Shown: positions 16,585-64,000 of the stretch, piece after piece
How positions within the stretch are numbered: the first letter of the stretch is position 1
How the letters are laid out: each line of letters begins with the position of its first letter
Origin: Gammaproteobacteria bacterium
GTDB taxonomy: Bacteria; Pseudomonadota; Gammaproteobacteria; BMS3Bbin11
Assembly: GCA_013150915.1 (NCBI GenBank)
Contig: JAADJE010000031.1
Coordinates: 11,139-75,138, forward strand
Length of the DNA stretch: 64,000 nucleotides
Reading direction: 5' to 3'
Made by a program: the position numbers and the translations under genes
Notes under the pieces: model-generated
What the model saw: the letters and a program-made list of their open reading frames with translations, nothing else
The model's database searches: none
What the model was told of the DNA's origin: nothing

Positions 16585-17190
16585 ATGACATTTGAACAAC
16601 TGGTATTTTATTTTCTCGCATCGGTAGCCGTGATAGCGGCTGGCCTGGTGATTACCGTACGTAACCCGGTACGGGCAGCCTTGTTCCTGATTCTGACATT
16701 TTTTACAGTAGCCGTGATCTGGTTATTACTGGAAGCAGAATTTTTAGCCATTGTGCTGGTGCTGGTATATGTCGGCGCAGTAATGGTGTTGTTCCTGTTT
16801 GTGGTGATGATGCTTGATATTGATACTGATCAGCTACGAGAAGGCTTTGCTGAATACTTGCCCATCGGTGCGACAGTGGCAGTCATCATACTGCTGCAAC
16901 TGGTTATCGTTTTCAGTTTCGGCCCTTTTGATCTAGAACAGATGCCGGCTCCAGCCGCAGCGGCTGTTGACTACAGCAACACACACCAGCTGGGCCTGTT
17001 GCTCTACACATACTATGTTTACCCATTTGAACTGGCGGCAGTTTTACTGCTGCTGGCAATGGTTGCAGCTATTGCTTTGAGCCTGAGAGGGCGCCTGTCT
17101 GCAAAACGGCAGAGACCAGATGCCCAGGTGCGTGTCCGTAAAGAAGACCGTTTACGCATAGTGAAAATGAATGCTGAGAAGCAGGACTGA
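16585..17190 (+). CDS. nuoJ: NADH-quinone oxidoreductase subunit J
   Basis: 201 aa membrane protein, conserved NuoJ N-terminal helices. Confidence 0.9.
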
Positions 17191-17245
17191 CCGGGGTTTA
17201 CTCACATGGGTTTACGGACAAAGGATAAATGACCAGGACTTTATA

Positions 17246-17551
17246 ATGATTGCTTTATCAGACTATTTGATACTAGGCGCCATACTGTTCTCGATTAGTG
17301 TGACCGGGATCTATTTGAACAGGAAAAATGTCATCATCCTGCTAATGTCTATCGAGTTGATGCTGCTCTCAGTCAATCTCAACTTTATTGCCTTTTCGTA
17401 TTATTTGAATGATCTGGCAGGACAGGTCTTTGTGTTTTTTATCCTTACCGTAGCGGCAGCAGAATCTGCAATTGGCCTGGCCATAATCATTGTTCTATTT
17501 CGGCGCAGGCATACCATTAACATCGAAGATTTGGACAGTTTAAAGGGATAG
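17246..17551 (+). CDS. nuoK: NADH-quinone oxidoreductase subunit K
   Basis: 101 aa from the internal ATG ([15 protein letters not shown]…); the longer 17171 ORF start would overlap nuoJ and add a non-conserved leader. Confidence 0.88.
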
Positions 17552-17552
17552 C

Positions 17553-19532: not shown

Positions 19533-19547
19533 TGAGACCGCCCTTAC

Positions 19548-21029: not shown

Positions 21030-21039
21030 CGGTTAGTCC

Positions 21040-36587: not shown

Positions 36588-37904
36588 ATGAAACCTGTAA
36601 ATATTGGCATACTGGGGCTGGGCACTGTCGGTGGTGGAACAGTAAATGTTCTTAATCGTAATGCCGATGAAATTACTCGGCGCGCGGGACGTGAAATACG
36701 GGTCACGATGGCTTCGGTACGCTCACTGGATAAACCACGAATCTGTGATACCAGTTCGATCAAACTGACCACAGACTCATTTGAAATCATTAATCATCCG
36801 GATATCGATGTGGTGGTAGAATTGATCGGTGGTGATACGCTGGCACTGGAGCTGGTTCAAAAAGCCATCACCAATGGCAAGCATGTGGTGACGGCCAATA
36901 AAGCATTAATTGCGGTGCATGGAAACGAGGTTTTTGCTGAAGCGCAGAGGATGGGTGTCACCGTCGCCTTTGAGGCAGCAGTGGCAGGTGGCATACCAAT
37001 CATCAAGGCAGTACGAGAAGGTCTGGCAGGTAATCGCGTGCAATGGTTGGCAGGTATCATCAACGGTACCAGTAATTTTATTCTCACCGAGATGCGTGAC
37101 AAAGGCCGTAGTTTTGAAGATGTACTGGCTGAGGCGCAGAAACTGGGCTACGCAGAAGCTGACCCCACCTTTGATGTGGACGGTATTGATGCCGCACATA
37201 AGCTGACCATACTGGCTTCAATCGCATTTGGTATTCCATTGCAGTTTGACAAAGCCTATATCGAAGGAATCCGATCTCTGACAACACAGGATGTTACCGA
37301 TGCAGCTGATCTGGGTTTCCGACTCAAACTTCTGGGAATAGCAAAACATACAGACAACGGTGTCGAACTTCGCGTTCACCCTACACTGATTCCTGAAAAA
37401 CGCCTGCTCGCAAATGTTGATGGGGTGATGAATGCAATACTGGTGAATGGTGATGCGGTGGGGCCTACGCTGTATTACGGTGCCGGAGCCGGGGCTGACC
37501 CAACGGCATCAGCAGTGGTTGCTGATCTGGTTGACGTTGTACGTGCCCTGACCACTGACCCTGAAAATCGTGTTCCTCACCTGGCCTTTCAGGCTGATGC
37601 GCTGAATGATACGGTAATCCTGCCAATTGAAGAGGTGAGCAGCGCCTGGTTTCTCCGCTTGCAGGCCCAGGATCAGCCCAATGTGTTGGCTAATGTCACT
37701 AAAATACTGGGCGAAAATGCTATAAGCATTGAAGCTATAGTACAGAAAGCACCGCACCAGCAAGGCGCCAATGTACCTATTGTTATTCTAACTCATAGCG
37801 TGTTTGAAAAGGCGATGAATCAGGCGTTAGGCAAGATCAGTAAGTTGCCTGAGATTGAGCCAGATATTACCCGCATTCGAGTAGAGTATCTGGGTTCGGA
37901 TTAG
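36588..37904 (+). CDS. hom: homoserine dehydrogenase
   Basis: 438 aa; NAD-binding GLGTVGG, catalytic domain and C-terminal ACT domain; no thrC follows. Confidence 0.9.
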   Translation: MKPVNIGILGLGTVGGGTVNVLNRNADEITRRAGREIRVTMASVRSLDKPRICDTSSIKLTTDSFEIINHPDIDVVVELIGGDTLALELVQKAITNGKHVVTANKALIAVHGNEVFAEAQRMGVTVAFEAAVAGGIPIIKAVREGLAGNRVQWLAGIINGTSNFILTEMRDKGRSFEDVLAEAQKLGYAEADPTFDVDGIDAAHKLTILASIAFGIPLQFDKAYIEGIRSLTTQDVTDAADLGFRLKLLGIAKHTDNGVELRVHPTLIPEKRLLANVDGVMNAILVNGDAVGPTLYYGAGAGADPTASAVVADLVDVVRALTTDPENRVPHLAFQADALNDTVILPIEEVSSAWFLRLQAQDQPNVLANVTKILGENAISIEAIVQKAPHQQGANVPIVILTHSVFEKAMNQALGKISKLPEIEPDITRIRVEYLGSD

Positions 37905-38202
37905 TTAAGGCAGGAGCGTCGTCTCATCCGGCACCGGTTCCTGGCCAAGGTCAATACCAACAAATGAACAGATCGCCCTGGAACCATATAAGGCTTCTTC
38001 TGCTACAGGGTCGAATAAAGCAAACCAGTGCTGAAGAAAATGAATACGACGCATTCTTTCAAGACCCACTGTCTACCTGCTTGATGACCTGACACAGTTC
38101 TTTTCGGGGAGTGATCTGTTCCCTGTCTTTGAGAAATAGTTCTTTATGTGTTGGTTTGCAGTATTCCTCAAACCCATCGGTATTTTGGGATTGTTGGCGC
38201 AT
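37905..38202 (-). mobile_element. IS5-family transposase pseudogene fragment (N-terminal ~115 codons, internal stop plus frameshift)
   Basis: Minus-strand translation from ATG 38202: MRQQSQNTDGFEEYCKPTHKELFLKDREQITPRKELCQVIKQVDSGS*, then in the +1 frame RMRRIHFLQHWFALFDPVAEEALYGSRAICSFVGIDLGQEPVPDETTLLP*. Collinear with E. coli IS5 InsH residues ~30-115 (…EIFLSRMEQILPW…[24 protein letters not shown]…LPDRTTIMNF…). Truncated directly against the hom stop codon. Confidence 0.7.
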
Positions 38203-38335
38203 GGTTATTTCGCTGTCTGTTGGGATAGCGTATTATCGCATTTAATCGGAATTAATCAGAGATTCCTTAGCTTTATCTCCCGTTTCGCCCTTCTGATACT
38301 TATTTCTCTTTTTTAATTTTCAGGAGGATACAATT

Positions 38336-38611
38336 TTGAAAAAAATTTTTGTCGGTGGTTTACCACCGGATGCCGACGAAACAAGTGTTACGGAACTTTT
38401 CTCGAAATATGGCAAGGTTCGTTCCATTAAGTTGGTGACAGACGTATTTTCTGGTCGCTGTCGTGGTTTTGGTTTTGTTGAAATGGAAGGGCATGAAGCA
38501 CGTGCCGCCATTGAGGCACTTGATGGTCGGATACACAATAACACTCCGCTTAAAGTCTGTTTTGAAGACACCACACGCCGTAAAGGTAAAGGACGTGGAC
38601 GTCGTCGCTAG
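38336..38611 (+). CDS. RNA-binding protein with single RRM domain and Arg/Gly-rich tail
   Basis: TTG start 8 nt after GGAGGA; RNP2 IFVGGL and RNP1 RGFGFVEM motifs; C-terminal RRKGKGRGRRR. Confidence 0.75.
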   Translation: MKKIFVGGLPPDADETSVTELFSKYGKVRSIKLVTDVFSGRCRGFGFVEMEGHEARAAIEALDGRIHNNTPLKVCFEDTTRRKGKGRGRRR

Positions 38612-38976
38612 TATTATTCATTACAACCCACTCGATTTTCATCCGAACCTCTGTCGAACAGAACAACCCTATAAGGCTACTCATTATTTATTGGATACAG
38701 ACAGGCACATCAATGTGTCCGTCCACTGCCCTGTGTGATACGGCCAGTTTTACGTTACCCTTATGTGCAGCGGCTATACCGTCGAGCACGATCACCGTTA
38801 TGTCCGAGCGCTGATTATTACCCCGACCCGCAGGTTTAGTGATTGCGGCAAGGTGTGGAAGTACCTGCTTTGTCGGCAAGTCAGTTTAATGAATGTTTGA
38901 GATTATTTCGTCACTTCATACCTCGAAATGACGAATGATCAGAAGCTCCCTGGGTTTTACAACAACCGTAAACCGA

Positions 38977-39609
38977 TCACTTACTCTCGAGATTTTCTAA
39001 CTGCCTGTCATGGATATTCGATAATAGAGACAACGCGGTGATGGCGCCGACCAATGCTAAAAACATATCCCACTGTGTATCCCAGATGTCGCCTTGTGTG
39101 GACAGAAAGGCATCGGCTTTCCCACCGTACTGTAGAGCGGCCCACCATTCGATCAGTTCGTAGAAGGCACTAATGGCCAGGCTGATCGAGGCAACAATGA
39201 AAAAGAGCATTTTCCCTGGTAACAGGGTTGTTTTTCTGAGTAATATTTCTCGTGCAAGGATGGCTGGCACAAAGCCCTGAGCAAAATGGCCGAGGCGGTC
39301 GTAATGGTTACGCTCTAGATCAAAAGCCTCCTGAAACCAGATCCCGACAGGGACATCGGCGTAGGTATAGTGACCACCAACCATCAGGATTAGCCCGTGA
39401 AAAAATATTAGAAGATACAATAAGCGGGTGAGTGGGAAACTTTGCCAGGTATAGGTCAGTATGGGCAGTGCAATCAGTACTGGTAAAACTTCCATAAACC
39501 AGGTTGTTCGGTCTTTCGGCGCGATATTTGACCAAAGTAAAATGATCAACGTTGCTGTCAGTAACAGGACCAGAAAACGAGCATTGCTATCAGCCTCCTT
39601 CGCCATCAA
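38977..39609 (-). CDS. integral membrane protein, possibly DUF2238/YjdF-like
   Basis: 210 aa, ~6 TM helices; family assignment from memory only. Confidence 0.5.
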   Translation of the reverse strand: MMAKEADSNARFLVLLLTATLIILLWSNIAPKDRTTWFMEVLPVLIALPILTYTWQSFPLTRLLYLLIFFHGLILMVGGHYTYADVPVGIWFQEAFDLERNHYDRLGHFAQGFVPAILAREILLRKTTLLPGKMLFFIVASISLAISAFYELIEWWAALQYGGKADAFLSTQGDIWDTQWDMFLALVGAITALSLLSNIHDRQLENLESK

Positions 39610-48475: not shown

Positions 48476-48623
48476 AAAGTTTATGTAACTTCGCGCCCCT
48501 GTCCCTATAATTGAGCCCAGCGCTATTGGTATGTGTGGGGGCTTACAGCAGCGTTATACGGCGCCCTTAAGCGGGATTAAAACAGAGATAAACAATGTGA
48601 CAATAAGTAATATTCGTTCCGCG

Positions 48624-49727
48624 ATGAGTACACCACTGGCATCAATATTTGGCAGTGGGTTTCTTGTGGTTGTGCCTATCCTGGCCAGCGCAGTTGGTCC
48701 CTATGCTGTGTTCGCCATGGCAGTGGTTGCGATTGTCGCCTTTCTGGTCGGTGGCATTGTCCGACACAATATACTTTGTGCCGAACCTGTACTGGCAAAG
48801 GGGAACAAGTCATTTACTGTAATCGTTGAAAGGCTCTCAGACCTTGCGCTAGTGGGAGCCTACGTGGTTTCGGTCTGCCTTTATATTCACATCCTTTCTA
48901 CTTTTGTCCTCGCTAATTTCGATCTGGATACTGATCGCAATAAAAGCATACTGACCAGCATAATAATAGGCGTTATCACGATTATCGGCCTGTTTGGAGG
49001 GCTAAAGCCACTTGAAAAACTGGAACGATGGGCACTTTATGTGACTATACTGATTCTTGCAGTATTGCTCATTATGTTCGGTATCTATGATGCCAATCAG
49101 TTTCTGGCACAGCGCCAGTTTACTTTTCCTGAAATACCGGAACGTACCGCATGGGAAATTGCAACTATCGTGGCCGGTACGCTCATTGTTGTACAGGGGT
49201 TTGAAACAACACGTTATCTGGGCAAATACTTTGACTCAGCTACGCGTATTCGTGCTTCTCGTTGGTCTCAATATTTTTCACTCAGTGTTTATGTGTTGTT
49301 TGTTGCCCTAGCATTACCCATTGTCCCGGCACTAAACGGAAATTATGCTGACAACAGTCTGATCAAACTGGCTGCGACGGCTTCATTACTTTTACCAATA
49401 CCTCTGATTGTCGCCGCCAGCATGTCGCAATTTTCCGCCGCAGTTGCGGATACCCTGGCAGCGGCTGCCAACATACAGGAAGCAAGCCATCAACGTGTTG
49501 GTACACGCTGGGGATATTTGTTTGTTGGTGTAAGCGCAATGCTGTTGGCCTGGACCAGTTCAACCTTTGAGATTATTGCGCTGGCATCGCGCGCTTTCGC
49601 ATTTTACTACTTGCTACAGTGCCTGGTGGCATTCTCAGTTTGCCGCAACCATCTTGAACGTGCCCGTTTTGTCTTTATTGCGATTATCCTTAGCTTTGTC
49701 CTTATCTTTGCCGTGCCAGCAGGCTGA
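48624..49727 (+). CDS. hypothetical polytopic membrane protein (~10-11 TM helices)
   Basis: Long hydrophobic ORF; start set at MSTPLASIFGSGF… (ORF track starts 31 codons earlier); no recognised family. Confidence 0.5.
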   Translation: MSTPLASIFGSGFLVVVPILASAVGPYAVFAMAVVAIVAFLVGGIVRHNILCAEPVLAKGNKSFTVIVERLSDLALVGAYVVSVCLYIHILSTFVLANFDLDTDRNKSILTSIIIGVITIIGLFGGLKPLEKLERWALYVTILILAVLLIMFGIYDANQFLAQRQFTFPEIPERTAWEIATIVAGTLIVVQGFETTRYLGKYFDSATRIRASRWSQYFSLSVYVLFVALALPIVPALNGNYADNSLIKLAATASLLLPIPLIVAASMSQFSAAVADTLAAAANIQEASHQRVGTRWGYLFVGVSAMLLAWTSSTFEIIALASRAFAFYYLLQCLVAFSVCRNHLERARFVFIAIILSFVLIFAVPAG

Positions 49728-49863: not shown

Positions 49864-50166
49864 GTGGGCATGGTAAATGATCCGGTCTGTGGGATGACAA
49901 TAGAAGTGAGTAATGCGGCGGCGCAGGAAAGGTACCAGGGCACAACCTGGTATTTTTGCTCTGACAGCTGTCACAGTAAATTTCTGGTGGATCCTGCCAG
50001 GTATGCGCAACATGAGACGATGACTGATCCGGTGTGCTACATGGAGGTATCTCTGGATTCGGGTTATCATGCGGAATACGAGGGGAAGACTTATTACTTT
50101 TGCTGTGAGTCTTGTCTCGGTAAGTTCATGAAGGATCCTACGCAATACGGGCGGGCAGATGCATAA
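49864..50166 (+). CDS. tandem YHS-domain (TRASH-like) metal-binding protein
   Basis: Two repeats of DPVCxM…(Y/W)YFCS(D/E)SC(H/L)xKF…DP…Y in 100 aa. Confidence 0.7.
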   Translation: MGMVNDPVCGMTIEVSNAAAQERYQGTTWYFCSDSCHSKFLVDPARYAQHETMTDPVCYMEVSLDSGYHAEYEGKTYYFCCESCLGKFMKDPTQYGRADA

Positions 50167-53235: not shown

Positions 53236-54228
53236 TCATTTTTTACTTAAACGGTAGGCCAGTTGCCGTGCGCCCAGTAGCCCCGCCTGCTGATTCAGAA
53301 TAAGTTTTACAGGAATCTTTTTAAGTAATTTTTGCATGGGACTCTTATTGCTGAAAGCCGTCAAAAATGCGGGTGACTGCATGAACGATACATTTTTTGC
53401 CGCGATCCCACCGCCAATATACAGGCCATCATACGGCAGGGTAGTCAGAGCCAGATTTCCGGCTTGTGAACCATATATTGTTGTAAAAAGAGTCATCGCC
53501 TGGGCCGCCAGAGACTGATTATCTTTTTGAGCGGCACGACTAATAGCTACTGGATTGCTGGTTGTCAATTTGCTGTTTAACTCAGGGTCAACCAGCTCCG
53601 GATGCTGTTGTTCGAGGAAATGATAAATATTAACGATCCCCTGACCTGAAAGAACCTTTTCACAGGAGATGCGCGGGTGTTCTTTGCGCAGGTAGCTGGC
53701 AAGCTTAAATTCAATATCAAGGACAGGGGCGTAATCCGCATGCCCGCCTTCCATCCCGTACACCTCATACCGGTTTTGCTGGTAAACCAGCAGCGCTTCC
53801 CCCAGGCCCGTACCGGCACCAATTATGGCCCTGCGGGTACCGGCCTGTGCCTGTCCTTCCTGCAGAACCAGGATGTCATCCTTGTTGAGTACTTCGATGC
53901 CATAACCAATAGCCTTGAAGTCATTAATAATTTTTACGACAGGAATATCGAATTGTGCTGCCAGCTCGAGGTTATTGATTTGCCAGGGGAGGTTGGTTAC
54001 CTGTACAGATTGTTTCTCATCTTCAGTTGCAACGGGACCCGCGACAGCAAGACAGGCGATTTGGGGTTTGGGCTGCCCCTGGAGAAAAACATCCAGTGCC
54101 TGATCGAAGGATTTATATTCCCCGCTTATCAGGCGTTGCTGGTAGATAATATTTAATTGGTGATTGCCGATGTCACAAAGCTGTAACAGGGTCTTTGTGC
54201 CGCCAATATCGGCCGAGAGAATAACCAA
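53236..54228 (-). CDS. glk: glucokinase
   Basis: 330 aa ROK-less Glk family: ADIGGTKTLLQL phosphate-1 motif, overall collinearity with E. coli Glk. Confidence 0.85.
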   Translation of the reverse strand: MVILSADIGGTKTLLQLCDIGNHQLNIIYQQRLISGEYKSFDQALDVFLQGQPKPQIACLAVAGPVATEDEKQSVQVTNLPWQINNLELAAQFDIPVVKIINDFKAIGYGIEVLNKDDILVLQEGQAQAGTRRAIIGAGTGLGEALLVYQQNRYEVYGMEGGHADYAPVLDIEFKLASYLRKEHPRISCEKVLSGQGIVNIYHFLEQQHPELVDPELNSKLTTSNPVAISRAAQKDNQSLAAQAMTLFTTIYGSQAGNLALTTLPYDGLYIGGGIAAKNVSFMQSPAFLTAFSNKSPMQKLLKKIPVKLILNQQAGLLGARQLAYRLSKK

Positions 54229-54471
54229 AACAGTGTACCTCTTGCTGCACTTTCATCCAGAAACCAGAAAAGCCCCCCGCTAGGGATTATACCCTGTATA
54301 AGGATGTTTTCCTGATACATTTGATGTAAATATCTCGGTCAAAACAGGGTTCTTTCTCTTTCCTGTAGCAAGGATCAGCACATTTCTGGCGTTGTTTTTA
54401 GAAGTAATGCAGCAGTCCTTTAACTTTCCAGGTTGATGAGTTGTTCAGGTAGTCGGTACGGGTACAGGCCT

Positions 54472-56865
54472 TCATTCAGGTTCTACGACTTCGATCCGGT
54501 AACTGCCTCGTGTTTTCCCATCTGCCGTGTTCGCTTCGATGGTGAAATGCAACGATTCGCCGATGCCCAGTGTCTTTACCGGCAAGGTGATCCTGTGCAG
54601 GTCAAAACCCGCAGGTGTTGTTTTCACCTCATTGGTATCCGGTGCGTCGCCGACCAGAAATTGTATAGTGGCAGGTTGTGGCAGGCAGATACACAGGGCC
54701 TCGCCCTGGAAAATCGTATCGATGGGCGCCATGGGTGTCCATACCGCGAGTATCGCCTTCGGGCGTTGGCCATCATAGCGCTCCCATACCGTGTCGAGCC
54801 GGTCCACGGGATAGCCCGCAGCGCGAGAATGCGCCAGTTTGATAAATTCCGCGTGGGCCCATACCAGCGGCATCGCCGATCCTGTCGCCTGGCCGGGGTA
54901 CAGTCGCCGTTCGGGGATGGGTTCGGCATCCCAGACCTGCTCCGGGAGCATGCCGCCGCGTCCTGCCATTGCGGCCATGGCACCCAGATAGGGCAGGGGG
55001 TCGTTGCCGGCCAGCAATTCGTAGTGGCCACGCTCCCCTGTGAGCAGCGGCCAGGGGCGACCGTGGCCGGTGCCATTGAAAGCAGAACCATCACGGTGTT
55101 CGCCATAGCCGTCTCCATTGTAGCGGTACCAGGCCGAACCATTCGGCGTCTCCGCCCTGAGCAGGGCATCGACGACCCGGACGCTGTCCCTGATCAATGG
55201 GTCATCGGCTCGCCGTAACCCGAAACGCACCAGCTGTAGAAAGTCAGTGCTGATCTGTTCCGCTGCGGATAACCCGGGATCCTGCAGCCGATTCTTGATG
55301 GGTAACTGCTGGCTCACCGCTTCCTCATCCATAATCGCTTTTGCTGGTGCAGTTCGAATGTAATAGCCGGCTACCCCGTGCTTTCGTGCCAGCGCGGTAT
55401 CGCGCACAACGGTCCATGATTCGATCCGGCTGTTCCAGAAGTCTGCGATGGCCAATGAAGTTTCCCGGTTCTGGCCCTTCAGGAAATCCGCACCGCTGAC
55501 CAGTGCGGCAATACAGATCGCCAGGGTAAAAGTGTTGACTCCTGCATTTTCCTCCCAGCGATCCTGGTCGGAGGCGGGGCCGTTGTGCGCGATGAAGCTA
55601 AGGGCGCGGGATACCATGTCAGCAACCTCGATACCATCCAGCGATCCACGCGCTGCAAGCTCTGCCGCCAGCAACACCGGGAATGCGGCTTCGTCGAGCT
55701 GGGTCCCCTGCCAGTAAGGTTTTCCACCGAGCCACTGGTTCTGGTACCAGTGGCCGTCTTCGAGCTGGGTGGCAATAAGATAACGCAGGATTTCGCGTGC
55801 CTTGTCATCCGCCCCCAGCATTAATAGCGCACCCGCGCTTTCTACCAGGTCGCGTGGCCAGACCAGGTGGTAGCCACCGCGTTCGTTGCGCGTTTCGCCC
55901 CAGGGGATGCTGAGGCTGGCAATCATGGCACCGGTAAAAATCTGATCCTGATGGGTGCGTAGCACCATCGCCGAGATTTTTAATTCATTGAGCAGGGCTT
56001 CGGGCAGATCCAGGTTGAGTGCGCATCGCAGGTCGCAGTTCGAATGCCAGTCGCGCCAGTCGTTGATCTGTTGTTGCCATGGACTGTCAAAGGATCTCGG
56101 CAGGGCGGACAGAGCCACTGTGGCAGCTGATTCCCTGCTGCTGGCAAAGCCGAGCGCCAGTACCGAGTAGCGGGGCAGACCGCCGGTCAGTGCAACATTA
56201 CCGGGACCGGCCTGCTTGTAGCGCCAGTGCATGGCTCCGTTACGATTGAAGTCCTGCCAGCCGTCGCTACCACCGACATAACCGGCACTGACTTCCTGCC
56301 AGGCATCACGCTGGTTGGTGTCCACGGCCGCCAGCGCCAGGCCGAATGGACCCTGTTTCGCCCACAGCACACGGCGGCCTCGGTAGCGCGCTACCGCGGC
56401 CTGGTTGTCATAACCGGTCCCTCCCAGGCGGGGGGCCAGCAGCACATAGGGCCGCAACGATGCGTCACCTTGCAGCCGGCATTCAATCAGTAGCACATCG
56501 CGCTGTGGATCGGGTGTGATGCGGAGTGTCAGCGTGAAACGTGGGTGCCGGTGGATCAGGGTGTAAGCGGGTATGCCGGGCTCGGGCTGGCTGAGGGTAT
56601 AATCATCCAGACGTTTGACCTCTACCCAGAAGCCGGCACCATCGGCGATGATGAAGCCGAGATCGCGGATCTGCGGCAGGTCGACACGTGGATAGTAGAC
56701 CTCATTGATGATACCTCGGCCGAGTGTAAACCACAGGCGTGACGGCCCCAGCGAACACCCCACGGCATTCTTGCGCCCACCGCTCCAGGTCGGTGGGATA
56801 CCTGGTCTGCCGGGTGCATGGCCGGTAACCTCGTAGGACTCAGAAACGAGTGGCAACTCGCTCAT
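54472..56865 (-). CDS. glycoside hydrolase family 15 protein (glucoamylase/trehalase-type)
   Basis: 797 aa; N-terminal beta-sandwich plus (alpha/alpha)6 catalytic domain with GH15 hallmarks VWPRDLVESAGALL and catalytic DRWEENAG; visibly GC-richer than upstream genes. Confidence 0.85.
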   Translation of the reverse strand: MSELPLVSESYEVTGHAPGRPGIPPTWSGGRKNAVGCSLGPSRLWFTLGRGIINEVYYPRVDLPQIRDLGFIIADGAGFWVEVKRLDDYTLSQPEPGIPAYTLIHRHPRFTLTLRITPDPQRDVLLIECRLQGDASLRPYVLLAPRLGGTGYDNQAAVARYRGRRVLWAKQGPFGLALAAVDTNQRDAWQEVSAGYVGGSDGWQDFNRNGAMHWRYKQAGPGNVALTGGLPRYSVLALGFASSRESAATVALSALPRSFDSPWQQQINDWRDWHSNCDLRCALNLDLPEALLNELKISAMVLRTHQDQIFTGAMIASLSIPWGETRNERGGYHLVWPRDLVESAGALLMLGADDKAREILRYLIATQLEDGHWYQNQWLGGKPYWQGTQLDEAAFPVLLAAELAARGSLDGIEVADMVSRALSFIAHNGPASDQDRWEENAGVNTFTLAICIAALVSGADFLKGQNRETSLAIADFWNSRIESWTVVRDTALARKHGVAGYYIRTAPAKAIMDEEAVSQQLPIKNRLQDPGLSAAEQISTDFLQLVRFGLRRADDPLIRDSVRVVDALLRAETPNGSAWYRYNGDGYGEHRDGSAFNGTGHGRPWPLLTGERGHYELLAGNDPLPYLGAMAAMAGRGGMLPEQVWDAEPIPERRLYPGQATGSAMPLVWAHAEFIKLAHSRAAGYPVDRLDTVWERYDGQRPKAILAVWTPMAPIDTIFQGEALCICLPQPATIQFLVGDAPDTNEVKTTPAGFDLHRITLPVKTLGIGESLHFTIEANTADGKTRGSYRIEVVEPE

Positions 56866-56871
56866 GTTAGT

Positions 56872-58239
56872 TCAGGCTAGCCGGCCGAGTAACACCTGTG
56901 CCGCCAGTCCAATGCCCAGGGTAAAGGTGAAGGTGATCCCCAATACCCACTTTACCAGTGGTATCGGCGCGGAACCTGATGCTGTGATAATGGGTTGCTG
57001 ATACATTGGTACGATTATACGCAGATACACCGCCAGTGACAGCACACTGTTGAGTATGGCTATTACAGCAAGCCAGGTGAAGCCTGCCTCAATCGATGCA
57101 CCGAACAACAGAAACTTGCCGACGAAGCCGGCGAGTGGCGGGATACCGGCCAGTGAAAGAAGAAACACCACCATTGCTACACCTATAGCAATATTTTTAC
57201 GCCCGATGCCAGAGAATACATCAAGCGTTCGACCTGCATGCATAACGACAGCAAAGGCACCCAGATTCATTGCGGCGTAGGCGGCAGAAAAAACAATAAT
57301 GGACGTAAATGCGAGTGGGCTCGCCCCCACCGCGACAATACCGATAAGAAAATAACCCGCCTGGGCAACCGACGAATAGGCGAGTAGTCGCACAATATTG
57401 TCTTGCACCAACGCAGCCAGATAGCCATAGGTCATAGTTATCACAGAGACCACAGCAATGACCAGCGGCCAGCCTGTACTCATGGGTAAATCGCGAACCA
57501 CCTGTGTCAGGGCCAGGATTGCACCAATCTTGGGTACTACCGACAGATAAGCGGCTATCGACACGGGCGCACCCTCGTAGGCATCCGGTGCCCAGAAATG
57601 AAATGGCACCAGTGAGGCCTTGTAACCCAGTCCGACGATGACGGCGATCAGGCCAACGGCGGCGACAACCGGTTTTTCTTCAAGGCGGGATAGATCGCTA
57701 AGCAGTGTCGAACCGGTGCCGCCGAACCAGTAACTGAGACCAAAGATCATGATAGCACCGGTGACTGCGGCGAAGACAAAAAATTTCATGGCGGCTTCGG
57801 TGGCACTATCATTACGCGGATAAGCGACCAGGGCAAAGGAACCGAGGCCTGACAGCAATATGCCCAATACGAGCAGCATGCTGTCACCGGCACCGGCTAG
57901 CACCAGGGAACCCAGGGTCACAAAACAGACCAGACTGTAAACAGTACCTTCCCGGTCACTGCCACCAAGTTCTGTACGTGCCAGCAAGACAGACAGTACG
58001 GTCGCGGGCAACAAGATGAGTTTGGCCCAGACACTCAGCATATCTATGCGGAACGTGCCACCGAATATGCTGGTATCCGCGCCAAGCAGGGGCAGGGTCA
58101 TGCCGGTCGCGAGCAGTAGTCCGGTAACTGTAACTGTCAGTGCAATACGGGGCAGGCGCAGCATCTCAGCCACCAGTGCGACGACACCAGTCAGCAGCAC
58201 GATGATCTCAGGGATAATTAAGGCGAGATCACGCTCCAT
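56872..58239 (-). CDS. complex I-like antiporter-type subunit, NuoN/ND2-like (divergent second copy)
   Basis: 455 aa, ~14 TM; FHFWAPDAYEGAP motif; high GC. Confidence 0.8.
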   Translation of the reverse strand: MERDLALIIPEIIVLLTGVVALVAEMLRLPRIALTVTVTGLLLATGMTLPLLGADTSIFGGTFRIDMLSVWAKLILLPATVLSVLLARTELGGSDREGTVYSLVCFVTLGSLVLAGAGDSMLLVLGILLSGLGSFALVAYPRNDSATEAAMKFFVFAAVTGAIMIFGLSYWFGGTGSTLLSDLSRLEEKPVVAAVGLIAVIVGLGYKASLVPFHFWAPDAYEGAPVSIAAYLSVVPKIGAILALTQVVRDLPMSTGWPLVIAVVSVITMTYGYLAALVQDNIVRLLAYSSVAQAGYFLIGIVAVGASPLAFTSIIVFSAAYAAMNLGAFAVVMHAGRTLDVFSGIGRKNIAIGVAMVVFLLSLAGIPPLAGFVGKFLLFGASIEAGFTWLAVIAILNSVLSLAVYLRIIVPMYQQPIITASGSAPIPLVKWVLGITFTFTLGIGLAAQVLLGRLA

Positions 58240-59708
58240 CAGAATTGCAGTGCCGCGGTGGTCTTGTGAATAACATCAAGCACCCAGGCCGGGACGACGC
58301 CCACCGCGACGATCAGTATCAGCAGTGGGCTCAACGCAAGTACTTCACGCACATTCAGATCGGCCATGTTTGTCCACTTTTCACGAGGTTCGCCGAGAAA
58401 CACCTTGCCAATGGCTCTCAGGTACAGGCCCGCAGTAATGACGATACCAAGGATGGCAATAACGGCCACGGGTTCAACCTGCAGTGTCGCCAGGAAGATC
58501 TGGAACTCGGCCGGAAAGTGAGCCAGTCCAGGCAATCCCAATGAAGCAAACGCGGCGAGTACGAAGGACCAACCGAGTATCGGTATTACATTCAGTAACC
58601 CTCCAAACTGATCCATCTCCCGGGTATTGGCGCGATCCTGCAACATGCCAACCAGTAAGAACAATGCACCGGTGACCAGTCCGTGGCTGACCATTTGCAG
58701 GACCGAGCCGTCCAGTGCGGTAGCACGAATCGCTGGATCGGTTGCCAACGCTGCAATCGCCACCCCGATGATGATATAACCCATGTGATTGACCGAGGTA
58801 TAGGCGACCAGGCGTTTGAGATCGCTCTGTGCCAGTGCGGCGAAGGCACCGTAGAGAGCAGCGACTACGCCGAACACCAGGATGACGATCCCGGCGTCAC
58901 GAAAGGCATCCGGTGTCATCTGAAATGCAAAGCGTACCAGACCATAGGTGCCGAATTTCAGCATCACCCCGGCGAGGATCACGCTGCCCGCAGCCGGTGC
59001 CTGGACATGTGCCGCAGGCAGCCATGTGTGAAACGGGAACACCGGCGTCTTGACCGCAAAAGTAATCAGCATCGCTACCAGTGCAAGCATGGCCGCAGTA
59101 CCATTTAATGGTGGGTTGCTGATCCAGTCGCGCATGTCGAAGGTATGTGGGTCGCTACCAAGATATAAGCCGAGAATGGCAAGCAGTAACGGCAGGCTGC
59201 CGAGAAATGTATAGATAAAAAACATCAGCGCTGCGCGTTGACGATCTTCATGTCCCCATTCAGCAATCATGAAGTACATGGCAACCAGCGACACCTCAAA
59301 GAAAACATAGAATAAAATTGCATCCAGCGCGGTGAAGACGCCAATAGAAGCCGTCTCCAGCAATAGCATCAGCGCGACGAAGGCATGAGATTGTTTGCGG
59401 ACCTTGGCAGAATAAATAAAGGTCACGAAGAACAACAGCGCAGTTAGCAGTACCAGAGGCAAACTAATGCCATCCACGCCAACACGGTAGGCAGCGCCAA
59501 TTGAAGGCATCCAGTCGAGCTGTTCAAGCTGGGCAAAGCCTGTCTCGTTAACACCGCGTGACCACATCCTTACCACACCCATGAGTGTCAGCCCGCTGGT
59601 AACGATGCCGATGGTGTGTACGACCTGTACGGGAGCTTTGCGCAAGGTCATAACAAGCAGCGCTCCAAGGAGCGGCAGGAACAGGGTGATGGACACGATG
59701 GGCAGCAT
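58239..59708 (-). CDS. complex I-like antiporter-type subunit, NuoM/ND4-like (divergent second copy)
   Basis: 489 aa; FHTWLPAAHVQAPAAGS motif. Confidence 0.8.
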   Translation of the reverse strand: MLPIVSITLFLPLLGALLVMTLRKAPVQVVHTIGIVTSGLTLMGVVRMWSRGVNETGFAQLEQLDWMPSIGAAYRVGVDGISLPLVLLTALLFFVTFIYSAKVRKQSHAFVALMLLLETASIGVFTALDAILFYVFFEVSLVAMYFMIAEWGHEDRQRAALMFFIYTFLGSLPLLLAILGLYLGSDPHTFDMRDWISNPPLNGTAAMLALVAMLITFAVKTPVFPFHTWLPAAHVQAPAAGSVILAGVMLKFGTYGLVRFAFQMTPDAFRDAGIVILVFGVVAALYGAFAALAQSDLKRLVAYTSVNHMGYIIIGVAIAALATDPAIRATALDGSVLQMVSHGLVTGALFLLVGMLQDRANTREMDQFGGLLNVIPILGWSFVLAAFASLGLPGLAHFPAEFQIFLATLQVEPVAVIAILGIVITAGLYLRAIGKVFLGEPREKWTNMADLNVREVLALSPLLILIVAVGVVPAWVLDVIHKTTAALQF

Positions 59709-59723
59709 TCAGGAGTCTCCTTA

Positions 59724-61553
59724 TCAATAAACCAGTAAAGCCAGCAACAGGGCGGCGAGGATCAGCGCAGTTCCCACGACAGTGATTGCCATTTCACGGT
59801 GAATCAGGCCGCTCTGCAATGAGCGGGCGCGGCTGCCGAGTTCGACCGTGTTGCGCACCAATGAAAATATCAGCCCGTCGATGCCTTGTTCGTCATTGCG
59901 GCGTACGGCTCGACCGATATCGAGTCCAAATCGACCCACTGCAAATACGCCTGCGTACAGGATGCGTTCCAGCCTTTCACAGCTGCGGGCGATGGCGAAT
60001 GCGGGCCGCACCATCAAGTTATCGAAACCGCCGGCAATGGTAAAACCCTGCTGTACCCAGGGTAACAAAGGGCCAAGTAGTCGCCGCGCCGTGAAGAACC
60101 AGCCAAGTATCAAACCACCCACTGCTGCACCCAGCCCGAAAATTTCGGGGGGAAATCGGGTGGGGGTGTTTTCGGGTAGGCGGGTGTTCAGCAAGGTCTC
60201 GATAGCAGGGAAGGCGACACCCAGGATAACGGCCAGTGTGACCAGTCCGGCCAGTCCCGCACCCATCCAGTATAGCCCCACGATCTTGTGGCTCTTGCGG
60301 TCACCATGCCACAGGATGCGCAGCGCTCGGGCCATGTAGGCGCCGGTCAACAGGGTGCCGGCCAGCGCCAGCGGCGCAAGTAATAGCACGTTGGGTGAGG
60401 CCAGCGAGGCGGCAATAATGGCTTCCTTGGAAAAGTAGCCACTCATAGGAGGGATACCGGCCAGCGCCAGTGCTGCCAGTGCATAACCGAAAAATACGCG
60501 TGGTCTATCACGCCCGGCACCTTGCAGATTTACCAGTACCGTGCTGTTACGGCTGTGCTGAAATATACCAGCACCAAGAAACAGGCCACTCTTTATGGTC
60601 GCGTGAGCGATCAGGTGCAGCAGTGCCGCCAGTGGCACACCGGCGCCCACGGCCACCAGCATCAGGCCGTACTGGCTGGAAGTTGATGCGGCGGTCAGGC
60701 GTTTTAGATCACGCTCGCCCAGCGCAATCAGGCCGGTGACCACGGTGGTGACGCCACCGACGAGGCCAATCACCAGTAGCACCTCAGGCGGCAGCATCGG
60801 CGCCACACGGATCAGCAGGATGGCACCAGCCGCCACCAGAGTGGCCGAGTGCAGCAGCGCCGAGACCGGTGTGGGACCGGCCATGGCGCGCTGTAACCAG
60901 TCGTGTAACGGTGTTTGTGCGGACTTGCCCATCGCCGCGACAAGTAAGAAGAACCCGGCCGCAATAGCCGCATTGCCTCCGGTGTTCAGTGTGGTAGCTA
61001 TATCGCTGCTGCCGGCGCTGGCAATAAGAATGAACACCGCGATATAGAGCCCCAGATCGGCGCTGCGGGTAACCAGGAAGGCGCGGGTGGCGGCTGATGT
61101 GACACCCGGTCGGCGGTACCAGAAGCCGATCAACAGATAACTGCTCAGGCCAATAAGTTCCCATGCCGCGAGCAGCAAAATCCAGTCGCCGGCAAGTACC
61201 AGAGTTTGCATGGCCGAGACGAACAGCAGCATGGTGGCGAAGAAACGTACTTTTTCACTGTCCTTTTTCATGTAGCCGACGGCATAAACCAGCACCAGGC
61301 TGCTGACCCCAGCAACCAGGGTTGAAAGCAATGCAGTCAGCGGCGTCGAGATAAGACGCAGTGGCATATCCGGCAGGCCGGGCAAAATCAACTGATTGCC
61401 CTGGCCATTAAAAGCGTCAGCCAGCAAGTACAGACTGGCGAACATACCAACAGCAGCACCCAACAGCGCCAGCGCTGCGGGGAAACGCCGCAGTAGCAGG
61501 ATCAGCACCATCATGGAGAGAGGCGCAAGAATGGCTGCGGCTATGAGGTTCAT
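59724..61553 (-). CDS. complex I-like antiporter-type subunit, NuoL/ND5-like (divergent second copy)
   Basis: 609 aa; NuoL-like helices plus C-terminal extension; conserved GWEL(I/V)GL…SY…IGFW region. Confidence 0.8.
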   Translation of the reverse strand: MNLIAAAILAPLSMMVLILLLRRFPAALALLGAAVGMFASLYLLADAFNGQGNQLILPGLPDMPLRLISTPLTALLSTLVAGVSSLVLVYAVGYMKKDSEKVRFFATMLLFVSAMQTLVLAGDWILLLAAWELIGLSSYLLIGFWYRRPGVTSAATRAFLVTRSADLGLYIAVFILIASAGSSDIATTLNTGGNAAIAAGFFLLVAAMGKSAQTPLHDWLQRAMAGPTPVSALLHSATLVAAGAILLIRVAPMLPPEVLLVIGLVGGVTTVVTGLIALGERDLKRLTAASTSSQYGLMLVAVGAGVPLAALLHLIAHATIKSGLFLGAGIFQHSRNSTVLVNLQGAGRDRPRVFFGYALAALALAGIPPMSGYFSKEAIIAASLASPNVLLLAPLALAGTLLTGAYMARALRILWHGDRKSHKIVGLYWMGAGLAGLVTLAVILGVAFPAIETLLNTRLPENTPTRFPPEIFGLGAAVGGLILGWFFTARRLLGPLLPWVQQGFTIAGGFDNLMVRPAFAIARSCERLERILYAGVFAVGRFGLDIGRAVRRNDEQGIDGLIFSLVRNTVELGSRARSLQSGLIHREMAITVVGTALILAALLLALLVY

Positions 61554-61861
61554 CCTTTCAACTCTGCCGCTTCTTCCATTTCCACGGAGCCTTTGGCGCG
61601 GAAGCGTGCAATGGCTACGCCGAATCCCACCGCCATCTCTATCGCCATCACGGTCATTATGATCAGTACGAACATTTGACCGGCAGGGTTGTCCGGGTGC
61701 AGGTAGCGCCAGAATGCGACCAGGTTGACCATGGCTCCGGCAAGAATCAGTTCTATCCCCATCATGATCATCACCAGATTGGTCTGCGACAGTGCACCAT
61801 AGATGCCGACACCAAACAGCGCGGCGCCAGTGATTAGTGCGAGAAGAAGTTCAATACTCAT
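61550..61861 (-). CDS. complex I-like subunit NuoK/ND4L-like
   Basis: 103 aa, 3 TM; conserved glutamates in TM2/TM3 (MGIELILAG…AIEMAVG). Confidence 0.75.
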   Translation of the reverse strand: MSIELLLALITGAALFGVGIYGALSQTNLVMIMMGIELILAGAMVNLVAFWRYLHPDNPAGQMFVLIIMTVMAIEMAVGFGVAIARFRAKGSVEMEEAAELKG

Positions 61862-62376
61862 TGTTCACGAGTCCTTTTAACAGGTTGTATGGCCACCGCC
61901 GTAGCAGCAATCATGGCGGTAAGAATGGTGATTCCGGCAGTTTCAAAAATCAGCATTGAACGACCCAGCAGTTCAAGGCCCAGATCTATAGTCTGTTGTG
62001 CAGCATCCGGTGAAACGCTGGCCACAGGTCCCCAGTCGACAAATACGGCTACGGCCACGGCGGCCACGAAGGAAACAATTCCGGCGCCTAAGGAGAGGCG
62101 CTTCTGATGAGTCATGTCCATCTCACCAAGTCCGCCGGGATCCATCATGAACATCACCATAAAAATAGCCATGATGCTCATTTCAGTGGCCATCATCATG
62201 ATTTGTAATACGCCGAGGAACTCCGCCTGCATACTCAGAAACATCGCACCAAGAGCCGTCTGAGAGAAAAGCAGAGCCAGCGCAGAACGTACCATCGAAA
62301 ACGTGCGGAAAACAACGATACCGAACCACACTCCGGCGAGTCCGAAGAAACCAATGAAGAACATTTGAGCAGTCAT
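61858..62376 (-). CDS. complex I-like subunit NuoJ/ND6-like
   Basis: 172 aa; N-terminal helices align with nuoJ of the first operon (…SQTALGAMFLSMQAEFLGVLQIMMMATEMSIMAIFMVMFMM…). Confidence 0.7.
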   Translation of the reverse strand: MTAQMFFIGFFGLAGVWFGIVVFRTFSMVRSALALLFSQTALGAMFLSMQAEFLGVLQIMMMATEMSIMAIFMVMFMMDPGGLGEMDMTHQKRLSLGAGIVSFVAAVAVAVFVDWGPVASVSPDAAQQTIDLGLELLGRSMLIFETAGITILTAMIAATAVAIQPVKRTREQ

Positions 62377-62507
62377 TTTACTGGGTACCTCAGTTGAACG
62401 GTTCGTAGTAGTTCACCAATAAAATGAACCGAGGCACAGCTTTTAACAAAGTTGTTGTGTCCATAATGTCAGGCTCATAAATTAGCGGTCAATTGTGGAA
62501 CCCAGGA

Positions 62508-63404
62508 TCAGGGAAACACCAGTACGAGTACACCAACGAGAAGTATATTCAGCAACGCCAGTGGGATGCCCAGCATCCAGCACCATGCCAGCAGGTCTGC
62601 TTCGCGGATGCGTGGCATATAACGCCCGGCCAGCAACATTATCGTGGTAACTGCCAGTATTTTGATTGTGCTCCATGCCCAGGGCGGTAGTAATGGTCCC
62701 TGCCAGCCACCGAGGTAGAAAATTACAGTGGCGGCCGCCAGGGTGATAATCAGCGCCAGGCGTCCCAGCCGGAATACCGCCAGCCGTACGCCGGCATATT
62801 CAGCTTCTACGCCGCCTGCGAGTTCGCCTTTCGATGTAGTTAAATCGAATGGCGGTAGAAATGCCAGTGCCATGGCCGCGATGAAAAACAGGATAAATCC
62901 CAGTGGTTGATAAATAATGTTCCATACACCTGCCTGGGAGACAACGACCTGTGTCGTCAGTAATGATTCGGCACGCATCACGACGGCGGTGATGGGCATA
63001 ACGATTAGCATTGCGTAGGCGATAAGCTGGCCCAGAAAACGCCAGCCACCGATCATGGCATAGGCACCATCCGGACCCCAGCCCGCCATCAGCAGGGCAA
63101 CCAGGACGTAGACCAGCGCCGCATTGATGAACAATGCGCCAGTAGCCATATCTGTGATGATCAGATCTGGAGTTAGCGGCACGACGGCTGCTGCGAGTAT
63201 TGCAGAGATCAACAGCAGAAACGGGGCGACTTCAAAGAAAATCCGGTCGGGTTTGCGCGGTACAATGGATTCCCGCCCCAGCAGTGCGATGCCGGCAAGT
63301 ACCGGTGCGGTCAGCCGAAATCGTCCGCTCACAGTCCAGTCTTCGAGTACTGCGACCAGATACGCACCAACCGCCAGCAACAGCAGCAAAAGAACGGTTG
63401 TCAT
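62508..63404 (-). CDS. complex I-like subunit NuoH/ND1-like (HycD/EchB-like)
   Basis: 298 aa, 8 TM; FDLTTSKGELAGGVEAEYAG corresponds to NuoH FDxxEGESELVAGxxxEYSG loop. Confidence 0.75.
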   Translation of the reverse strand: MTTVLLLLLLAVGAYLVAVLEDWTVSGRFRLTAPVLAGIALLGRESIVPRKPDRIFFEVAPFLLLISAILAAAVVPLTPDLIITDMATGALFINAALVYVLVALLMAGWGPDGAYAMIGGWRFLGQLIAYAMLIVMPITAVVMRAESLLTTQVVVSQAGVWNIIYQPLGFILFFIAAMALAFLPPFDLTTSKGELAGGVEAEYAGVRLAVFRLGRLALIITLAAATVIFYLGGWQGPLLPPWAWSTIKILAVTTIMLLAGRYMPRIREADLLAWCWMLGIPLALLNILLVGVLVLVFP

Positions 63405-64000
63405 TGCCGCACCTCCCAGGGTGATAGATCCAGGGAACTGACCGCCAGCAGTGCGTCGCCCAGCTCCTGCTGTTCGATCAGTGGGTTGATTAGTGCAAGA
63501 TGGTGCGTCGAAGGTGTGTCCAGTTGTGCCGTAGTAACCTTACCCATCTCCAGTGTTAGTCGAAGTCTGGCCACCCCGCGAGGGGTCTCGACTACCGCTT
63601 CGCCTGTTCCCGATATTTCGCCGATAATGGCCGGTACAGGTAACTCTATGGCGCCAGCCGCTTCGATAAGCGCGAGGCTATGTATTATCTCATCCAGGCG
63701 GACATGCAGGCGAGCGAGGGCATCACCTGTCTTTCGACTGACTGTTTTGAACCCTAGTGTAGTACAGACCTTGTCTGCACTGCGTGCATCGTCGCCGATC
63801 CCAGTAGCGCGTGCCACAGGGCCACGCAGTGTGGCATCCGTTGCTAGCAGGCCAACACCTGCCATTCGTGATTTCAGTAAAGGAGTTCGTTGCAATCGTT
63901 TAGTCAGGGTCAATATGGCTGGTTTTAGCGCCACGATCTGTTCCAGGTCGGCATGCTGGAACTTCAATTGTAGAGAGGCGGTGCGTCGCATTAGCCAGTC
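63401..64000 (-). CDS. complex I 49-kDa/NuoD-like subunit, partial (5' end beyond window edge), lacking hydrogenase Ni-binding cysteines
   Basis: C-terminal 196 aa align with NuoD C-terminus (…VETPRGVARL… ~ [10 protein letters not shown]; …TPSTHHLALINPL… ~ [13 protein letters not shown]); no C-terminal CxxC. Confidence 0.7.
   Translation of the reverse strand, partial: DWLMRRTASLQLKFQHADLEQIVALKPAILTLTKRLQRTPLLKSRMAGVGLLATDATLRGPVARATGIGDDARSADKVCTTLGFKTVSRKTGDALARLHVRLDEIIHSLALIEAAGAIELPVPAIIGEISGTGEAVVETPRGVARLRLTLEMGKVTTAQLDTPSTHHLALINPLIEQQELGDALLAVSSLDLSPWEVRQ

Follow-up and report, generated by a model that had tools for sequence, protein, structure and literature searches.

A GC-rich gene block beside glk

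We analysed a stretch of 64,000 nucleotides (the window) from a Gammaproteobacteria bacterium (assembly GCA_013150915.1, contig JAADJE010000031.1, which is 83,215 nt long and carries proteins NOY16106-NOY16121, positions 11,139 to 75,138), whose right-hand end is occupied by a GC-rich block of eight minus-strand genes running out of the window (Table 1). These comprise a GH15 gene, genes for NuoN-, NuoM-, NuoL-, NuoK-, NuoJ- and NuoH-like proteins, and the 3' part of a gene that in relatives encodes a fusion of NuoB-like, HMBD and NuoD-like domains. Together with the nuoA-like gene that precedes the fusion gene in relatives, the Nuo-like genes form what we call the cassette, i.e., A-(B'/HMBD/D')-H-J-K-L-M-N.

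Table 1. Features of the GC-rich block and its flank in the window
Feature	Position	Strand	Remarks
glk-GH15 spacer, 243 nt, AT-rich	54,229-54,471		Holds change point 54,450; weak terminator-like hairpin 54,274-54,286 (minus strand) 3' of GH15
GH15 glucoamylase/glucodextranase-like gene, 797 aa	54,472-56,865	-	PF09137 1e-80, PF00723 8e-27
NuoN-like antiporter-type subunit, 455 aa	56,872-58,239	-	Family match, residue check
NuoM-like subunit, 489 aa	58,239-59,708	-	TIGR01972 502.5 bits, above cut-off
NuoL-like subunit, 609 aa, full length	59,724-61,553	-	Family match, residue check
NuoK-like subunit, 103 aa	61,550-61,861	-	Protein identical in >21 public contigs
NuoJ-like subunit, 172 aa	61,858-62,376	-	GC4 just 0.50
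NuoH-like subunit, 298 aa	62,508-63,404	-	Family match, residue check
C-terminal ~199 codons of NuoB-like/HMBD/NuoD-like fusion gene	63,401-64,000	-	Cut by window edge; identity from relatives
glk, host-like flank, GC 0.483	53,236-54,228	-	Left neighbour of spacer
APC-type permease	48,531-49,727	+	Host-like GC, baseline divergence
Tandem YHS/TRASH metal-binding protein	49,864-50,166	+	Host-like GC, baseline divergence

In a domain search, the GH15 product showed both a Glucodextran_N and a GH15 catalytic domain; with 585 bits against the TIGR01535 equivalog, below its cut-off of 741.9, it is predicted to be a starch-degrading enzyme of the glucoamylase/glucodextranase type, its specificity not being fixed by the equivalog score. 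The best NCBIfam matches of the membrane subunits are Nuo families, neither Mrp nor Hyf. At 26-41% identity to the canonical Nuo subunits encoded in the same window, the block copies are not recent duplicates of these. Look-ups of identical proteins gave no match for the H-like, GH15, M-like, NuoI and S15 proteins.

GC content in 1-kb windows ranged from 0.426 to 0.510 across positions 1-54,000 and from 0.521 to 0.615 across 55,001-64,000. When a single change point was fitted by maximum likelihood, it was placed at 54,450 (log-likelihood ratio 154; GC 0.471 to the left, 0.569 to the right), i.e., about where GH15, at its 3' end, borders on the glk-GH15 spacer. The step was equally evident gene by gene: 51 host genes had a GC of 0.470 +/- 0.028 (maximum 0.536), compared with a mean of 0.557 (range 0.511-0.606) for the eight block genes (Mann-Whitney p = 4e-6). 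GC at third codon positions (GC3) was 0.470 +/- 0.043 in host genes and averaged 0.603 (range 0.523-0.670) in the block (p = 6e-6), and GC at four-fold sites (GC4) had a host mean of 0.497 (maximum 0.590) against 0.50-0.69 in the block (p = 1.6e-4). In all six paralog pairs, i.e., canonical nuoH, J, K, L, M and N (15,000-22,488) and their block counterparts, GC and GC3 shifted the same way. From host to block, CCGG rose from 3.96 to 8.38 per kb (2.1-fold), GCCGGC from 0.20 to 1.26 (6.3-fold) and GGCG from 4.44 to 8.17 (1.8-fold). These measurements bear out what a first-pass annotation had read from the letters: an abrupt GC step near 54.4 kb with its left boundary in the spacer, a density of these three motifs, a difference in codon usage between the two sets of nuo-type genes (GC3 being higher in the block copy each time), and a block made up of GH15 plus divergent complex I-like genes, among which we found no nuoB, C, E, F, G or I. 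The tetranucleotide comparison that it had proposed gave a block-host distance of 0.358, as opposed to 0.116 +/- 0.014 for equally long pieces of host sequence (z about 17.6).

A GC-normalised dinucleotide signature was discarded as evidence, since the canonical nuoH-N region is equally deviant (64.2, versus 61.7 for the block). With this signature ordinary once normalised, the signal of the block is essentially its G+C content itself. Base composition and codon usage of the block are atypical for the host, as in a genomic island.

The block is less diverged than its flank

The lineage of the window (W) was compared with lineage A, consisting of the mutually identical L001 (HyVt-414), L087 and L086, and with lineage B, 'bacterium BMS3Abin11' (L083) and its relatives. 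Nucleotide identity between W and A was 86-90% in the APC permease, gnd, zwf and glk, and 96-98.5% from GH15 through the NuoD-like gene; the switch from about 88% to 97% or more falls between roughly 54,100 and 54,470. Synonymous divergence, measured as the Jukes-Cantor distance at four-fold sites (dS4), reached 0.28-0.63 in five genes of the flank, against 0.035-0.116 across the eight genes of the block; it was lowest in GH15 (0.035), which also has the highest GC of the block (0.606; GC4 0.691). Between W and B, dS4 over 22 housekeeping and flank genes, including the canonical nuo-rimP-nusA region of the same BMS3Abin11 assembly (L102), had a median of 0.36 and a range of 0.10-0.71. Block values were lower, both against BMS3Abin11 (0.09-0.21; p = 2e-4 versus this baseline) and against lineage A (p = 3e-5). 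In the six canonical-cassette paralog pairs, the cassette copy was the less diverged (p = 0.03); canonical NuoM was 92.7% identical in direct comparison with a relative. On the strength of the same-genome housekeeping baseline, we rejected the possibility that the flank, rather than the block, is the divergent outlier.

The relationships among the three lineages also differ between block and flank. In the flank, A and B are close to each other (94% identity in zwf, 97.5% in glk), giving the tree ((A,B),W), yet the block tree conflicts with it, as W and A are as close as, or closer than, A and B. Furthermore, L086 and L083 are 97-99.6% identical in the flank on the side of the fatty-acid cis/trans isomerase (CTI) gene, while their blocks are mosaic, with 75-82% identity over the nuoA-like and fusion genes and 90-99% elsewhere. 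Similarly, L085 carries an N-like allele of the W/A type in a locus that is otherwise of the B type, whereas the N-like allele of L083 is not W/A-type despite the same flank. Phylogeny and divergence of the block are therefore discordant with the flanking genome, which is again characteristic of genomic islands.

Horizontal exchange of the block is thus supported by evidence independent of base composition. Horizontal acquisition had first been suggested on the basis of GC and codon usage; it gained support from the dS4 discordance, the tree conflict, the mosaic alleles and the presence of the cassette on plasmids and in four bacterial classes (see below), though not in the form of a fresh insertion at 54.4 kb.

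A conserved neighbourhood

The arrangement of CTI, cassette with GH15, and glk-zwf recurs in at least nine independent assemblies (L001, L083-L089, L092, L093, L097, L098). Relatives in which up to 6 kb beyond the nuoA-like gene could be followed carry there the CTI gene, an amino-acid permease and a pyridoxal-phosphate-dependent decarboxylase. In the isolate Thiogranum longum the cassette is followed by a flavoprotein gene, GH15 and zwf, in this order; the N-like gene and GH15 meet at a TGA-N6-ATG junction that is conserved and common to Thiohalobacter metagenome-assembled genomes (MAGs); and distant relatives whose glk is 84% and 74% identical still have GH15 beside it. Since the neighbourhood is common to T. 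longum, allele exchange at an old, conserved accessory locus is indicated, and no fresh insertion.

Several details of the site differ among relatives. About 170 nt of the spacer (54,243-54,410) are present in W and A and absent in B, whose spacer measures 64 nt. The CTI gene beside the nuoA-like gene is split into two open reading frames (ORFs) in lineage B (L083/L084/L085:3467-5963) and intact, with 792 aa, in L086:3531-5909; CTI also adjoins the cassette, in other orientations, in L009, L011, L016 and L024. Synteny between W and A stops immediately left of the APC permease (<48,531), where W has an ABC-2 transporter and a radical-SAM gene, and lineage A (L090:1-7900) has a glutamate dehydrogenase, a sucrose-synthase-like glycosyltransferase and a RelE/HTH toxin-antitoxin pair.

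Origin of the block and of its GC excess

We consider the following explanation probable as a whole. The GC-rich tract (54,472 to beyond 64,000, ~11.4 kb in full) would be a single minus-strand accessory transcription unit in the order nuoA-like, NuoB-like/HMBD/NuoD-like fusion, nuoH-, J-, K-, L-, M- and N-like, GH15. It would sit at an old conserved chromosomal site between the CTI gene and glk, in hydrothermal-vent Gammaproteobacteria of ~47% GC; it would contain a mobile, copper-linked cassette; and its alleles would pass between related lineages by homologous recombination. Such exchange would explain why the block shares 96-98.5% identity with that of a lineage from which the housekeeping genes differ far more (about 84-92% identity). 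The GC excess of the block would have two parts.

The first part lies in the proteins. At codon positions 1 and 2 (GC12), the cassette is GC-richer than its flanks in 61 of the 64 hosts (mean +0.049), and GH15 has a GC12 of about 0.57 in every host examined. So widespread an excess is an intrinsic property of the cassette proteins, and about half of the ~10-point GC excess can be assigned to it. The GC4 offset from the flanks, on the other hand, varies from -0.24 (Alcanivorax) to +0.25 (L003), so that this component is a matter of the individual history of a locus. For the block in the window, the excess at four-fold sites amounts to about +0.15 (GC4 0.65 vs 0.50); GH15 and the K-, L-, M- and N-like genes contribute most of it, the J- and D-like genes little. 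This excess fits an origin in, or continued import from, GC-richer relatives (Thiogranum/Thiohalobacter) with incomplete amelioration; cassette GC4 is 0.70-0.82 in T. longum, with neighbours at about 0.62, and about 0.71 in Thiohalobacter MAGs. An attempt to assign the donor by tetranucleotide similarity, in which Thiohalobacter and Thiogranum flanks came closest, was driven mainly by GC and is not conclusive.

For this synonymous part there is a live alternative, to which we give a modest chance and which departs from the above explanation just on the cause of the synonymous excess. The block could be a native recombination hotspot, in which GC-biased gene conversion keeps synonymous GC high through gene flow, with no GC-rich donor. 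Two observations weigh against it: differences between W and A show but a weak GC bias (91 vs 68), and some hosts have a cassette of lower GC4 than the flanks (Alcanivorax -0.14 to -0.24). It would agree with the frequent recombination and mosaicism of the block, with the sharing of the GC-rich block by three lineages of ~47% GC, with the elevated GC4 of the T. longum cassette relative to its neighbours, and with the fact that the genes of highest GC4 (GH15, NuoL-like) have the lowest dS.

Purely vertical inheritance, with high GC arising from protein needs plus synonymous selection and low dS from slow synonymous evolution, appears unlikely. In its favour are the GC12 pattern described above, the neighbourhood kept as far as T. 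longum, a block protein identity to T. longum on a par with that of zwf, and our failure to find scars of mobile elements. Against it stand the raised GC4 and an offset that takes either sign elsewhere. Moreover, uniformly slow synonymous evolution of the block was ruled out by the reversed divergence in L086 and L083: there the block is more diverged (75-98% identity) than the flank, so a slow synonymous rate cannot explain the low block dS4. The N-like alleles of L085 and L083, which differ although the flanks are the same, and the conflicting block and flank trees likewise speak against it.

Recent site-specific integration or transposition of a classical genomic island at about 54.4 kb is very improbable. 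The sharp GC step inside an intergenic spacer would suit it, and so would the occurrence of the cassette elsewhere between insertion sequences (IS) on a plasmid and at differing sites in related genomes. A search for tRNA or integrase signatures, recommended in the first-pass annotation, came back empty: the window contains no tRNA gene less than 30 kb from the boundary, five related loci contain none either, and relatives whose annotation extends 6 kb past the far end show no integrase or transposase. The two block boundaries have no direct or inverted repeat of at least 10 nt in common, and the spacer is unique, with no repeat, IS remnant or Rfam family and with promoter and terminator matches that are weak and at chance level. 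Nor was an empty site found: a metagenome scan with glk returned three loci, all with GH15 beside glk, and presence was not patchy among the close relatives returned by our scans. In addition, the GH15-glk adjacency persists where glk itself is just 74-84% identical. As for a chimeric contig or binning artefact near 54.3 kb, which an abrupt composition break in a MAG contig might bring to mind, recurrence of the glk-GH15-cassette junction in at least nine independent assemblies from different samples and pipelines excludes a metagenomic chimera, and the T. longum isolate genome has a similar arrangement.

Some observations do weigh against the explanation that we prefer. Lineages A and B share both the ~47% GC background of W and its 57% GC block, which makes the anomaly older than the recent exchange, so that exchange alone does not explain the GC excess; and no donor lineage was identified. 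The W-B baseline of dS4 is heterogeneous, canonical nuoJ (0.07-0.10) and nuoI (0.16-0.22) overlapping the block values against lineage B. Block proteins of W and T. longum are 80-89% identical, no closer than zwf (87%). Finally, the right boundary lies outside the window and is inferred solely from relatives, L001 placing it ~1.9 kb beyond 64,000.

With respect to the canonical operon, nuoI and nuoJ (16,069-17,190) are far less diverged from B than their operon neighbours (0.3-0.5), and may constitute a separate, short recombination tract within this housekeeping operon.

A complex I derivative without redox cofactor sites

To describe the cargo of the block, we aligned the membrane subunits to complex I and checked individual residues (E. 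coli numbering). The NuoL-like protein keeps E144, K229, H254, H334, H338, K342 and K399, and the NuoM-like protein all six channel residues checked (E144, K234, K265, H322, H348, E407); the NuoK-like protein keeps both membrane glutamates, and the NuoA-like protein D79/E81. In the NuoN-like protein K217, K247 and K395 are kept, with E133, the glutamate of transmembrane helix 5 (TM5), replaced by L and H305 by Q; in the NuoH-like protein D213, E220, E228 and R293 are kept and E157, E216 and E218 lost. The membrane subunits A, H, J, K, L, M and N of complex I are thus all represented, with their channel residues kept fully in L, M, K and A and partly in N and H.

The fusion gene, as found in near-identical relatives (L001, L083-L088), is preceded by the nuoA-like gene and encodes 658-753 aa. 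Its product consists of a NuoB-like domain, one to four HMBD repeats with His-rich linkers, a Met/His/Asp-rich stretch, and a divergent but complete NuoD-like domain. In profile searches the N-terminal domain matched MbhJ (2e-8) and NDUFS7 (3e-6), the NuoB/MbhJ match spanning positions 39-92. There is no Cys in residues 1-147, the NuoB-like part, and this domain therefore cannot hold Fe-S cluster N2. The HMBD repeats (YTCPMHPE...GSCPKCGM) matched the N-terminal metal-binding domain of Cu-ATPases, and positions 343-656 the whole NuoD/NdhH/MbhL subunit. In the AlphaFold (AF2) model pLDDT exceeds 90 in the NuoD-like domain, and Foldseek related the fusion model to NdhH, HycE, Nqo4, MbhL and MbsL (target TM 0.67-0.71). 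The NuoD loop GPxHPxxHG reads GPFFPGLPGG and the D-Y position D-P, both invariant in 32 family members; with reference to T. thermophilus Nqo4, the His of this loop and the Tyr of D-Y are taken to be the quinone ligands. The NuoD-like domain has a single, non-conserved Cys and no NiFe ligands.

Accordingly, the fusion protein has neither the four Cys by which NuoB binds N2 nor the quinone ligands of NuoD, and the cassette has neither Mrp small subunits nor the NiFe or other catalytic ligands typical of Mrp, MBH, MBS and FHL. Neither in the window nor in any of the 80+ loci does the cassette include the electron-input and connecting subunits NuoC, E, F, G or I. The cassette is, by these residue and profile comparisons, a predicted complex I derivative that has lost every redox cofactor site and kept the proton-translocating membrane arm.

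The number of HMBD repeats differs even among near-identical lineages, with fusion lengths of 658, 659, 706 and 753 aa (L001:407-2527, L083:6482-8458, L087:407-2668), and across the family, lengths range from about 514 to 1055 aa with one to four or more repeats. Many metagenomic contigs end inside the repeat region (L088, L092-L095), and no part of the block differs more between lineages A and B than the D-like/HMBD gene (about 76% nucleotide identity). The family is large, thousands of database proteins bearing generic or misleading names such as 'Ni,Fe-hydrogenase III large subunit' or 'formate hydrogenlyase subunit 5'. In the searchable literature we found no study that characterises the fusion protein.

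The cassette is mobile and associated with copper-resistance genes

A scan of one genome per species yielded 80 loci with the same eight-gene order, A-(B'/HMBD/D')-H-J-K-L-M-N, with H-like proteins 65-98% identical across four bacterial classes. Hosts include Gammaproteobacteria (Thiogranum, Thiohalobacter, Marinobacter, Halomonas/Vreelandella and Alcanivorax), Betaproteobacteria (Pusillimonas), Alphaproteobacteria (Sulfitobacter, Nitratireductor and others) and Actinomycetota (Rubrobacter, a plasmid included). The cassette is carried by 11 plasmids, four of them predicted to be conjugative, and mostly lies within copper-resistance islands there. One Sulfitobacter plasmid has it between CusA/CzcA and CopB/multicopper-oxidase genes, with a pair of ISKra4-like transposases enclosing it; on a Rubrobacter plasmid its neighbours are genes for a P-type ATPase, a multicopper oxidase and DUF305. 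Genes for copper or metal resistance occur within 10 kb of the cassette in at least 31 of the 53 loci that span at least 15 kb, and close relatives hold the cassette at differing chromosomal sites. The combination known from Marinobacter, i.e., the eight-gene order with adjacent Cu-resistance genes, is found in the cassette family. On this wider scale, the cassette is a widely mobile module associated with copper islands and borne on plasmids and IS elements.

In the window itself, the nearest metal gene is just the YHS protein gene (49,864-50,166). APC-type permease and YHS families directly adjoin the cassette in many genomes, Marinobacter included; in the window they lie 4-6 kb to its left. 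In T. longum a YHS/HMBD Cu-ATPase (CopA) and a MerR regulator are found 5-8 kb from the cassette.

Plasmid unnamed5 of Sulfitobacter sp. SK025 (L081:6834-20109) holds the cassette and a porin between ISSusp4 and ISSusp3, in the manner of a composite transposon. A Pyr_redox_2 flavoprotein gene (~395 aa) stands just upstream of the nuoA-like gene in several Gammaproteobacteria (L007:4709-6067, L009:6440-7633, L015:6258-7442, L016:6593-7786, L037:~6310-7461), and in T. longum (L100:8576-9928) a gene with Pyr_redox_2 and dimerisation domains is located between the N-like gene and GH15. This flavoprotein is a possible functional partner of the cassette.

A putative role in copper handling

Given the lost redox ligands, the proton-path residues kept in the L-, M-, K- and A-like subunits, the copper-type modules inserted and the association with cop genes, we favour the view that the cassette may encode a copper-responsive ion-translocating complex. 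Most simply, it might couple the proton-motive force to the handling or export of Cu(I), a proposal that we put forward tentatively. The HMBD repeats and Met/His-rich segments would then bind copper from the cytoplasm where the quinone module used to be. Likewise tentative is the broader idea of a previously unrecognised metal-handling machine, in which the complex I arm and a cofactor-free Cu(I)-binding module would carry out copper expulsion or sequestration driven by proton-motive force, or copper-responsive ion pumping, and which would spread on copper-resistance plasmids across phyla. Caution is called for on two counts: the Cys/His sites of the HMBD repeats could bind Zn or Fe instead of Cu, and the suggested function comes from domain content, genomic context and one transcriptome study.

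In that study, Eddie et al. 2021 (PMC8233155) described in Marinobacter atlanticus a Nuo-like operon that interrupts cop genes and is co-expressed with them, and suggested a pump driven by copper redox chemistry. Such a pump remains an alternative function of the cassette, but the variable number of repeats (one to four or more) argues against a fixed electron wire. An Na+/H+ pump for osmoadaptation, as proposed for actinomycetes, also remains.

The GC step marks horizontally exchanged DNA, though at an old locus of fixed position whose alleles flow by homologous recombination, and GC-based island callers would here give the right answer for a partly wrong reason. The cargo is the more interesting result, being an apparently cofactor-less, copper-linked and uncharacterised variant of complex I. 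If proton flow does couple to copper handling, this would be a new use of the complex I scaffold, and the idea is directly testable in cultured hosts of the cassette such as Thiogranum longum, Marinobacter and Sulfitobacter.

Elsewhere in the window, a stretch of ~1 kb (37,904-38,977) contains no ORF of at least 100 aa on either strand and no Rfam match at the gathering threshold. The polynucleotide phosphorylase-like gene after rpsO appears to be divided into two overlapping ORFs (30,235-31,413 and 31,362-32,330), for which a frameshift, a pseudogene or an assembly error is possible.

Relation to known systems

Compared with islands of the Lawrence-Ochman type and with 'flexible' loci at conserved sites whose exchange is by homologous recombination, the block shares the GC/GC3 step, the accessory function, the phylogenetic incongruence and, relative to its flanks, the lower divergence. 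It differs in having no integrase, tRNA or repeats and no empty site among the sampled relatives, and in that its GC excess is partly intrinsic to its proteins.

Within complex I and its superfamily (NDH-1L/MS, Fpo, MBH, MBS, FHL/Hyf, Mrp), the cassette stands out by its combination of features. It has homologues of NuoA, H, J, K, L, M and N in the canonical order, and NuoB-like and NuoD-like folds are present in its peripheral protein. Unlike complex I, it has no NuoC, E, F, G or I; the B-like and D-like parts are fused, with HMBD repeats and His/Met-rich linkers between them; and its NuoH and NuoN have lost several acidic residues of the E-channel and TM5.

In the searchable literature we found just two published sightings, those in M. 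atlanticus (PMC8233155) and in marine actinomycetes (PMC6676996). More than 20 Marinobacter loci carry the same cassette, with H-like proteins 70-78% identical and CopA, CopB or cupredoxin genes in the flanks. By its published description (PMC8233155), the M. atlanticus operon comprises NuoADHJKL without M and N, and its L subunit is without the long helix, whereas the Marinobacter loci that we examined all have M-like and N-like genes, and the NuoL-like protein of the window is full length. The fusion architecture and the loss of cofactors are not described for that operon (PMC8233155).

In marine actinomycetes, a partial nuo operon of the order nuoA - hypothetical - nuoHJKLMN (Penn & Jensen 2012, cited in PMC6676996) has been read as a proton/sodium pump for adaptation to salinity, no link to copper being reported. 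In its published order, it resembles the cassette in its identical succession of genes, in the unannotated gene between nuoA and nuoH, and in being an extra copy beside a full complex I.

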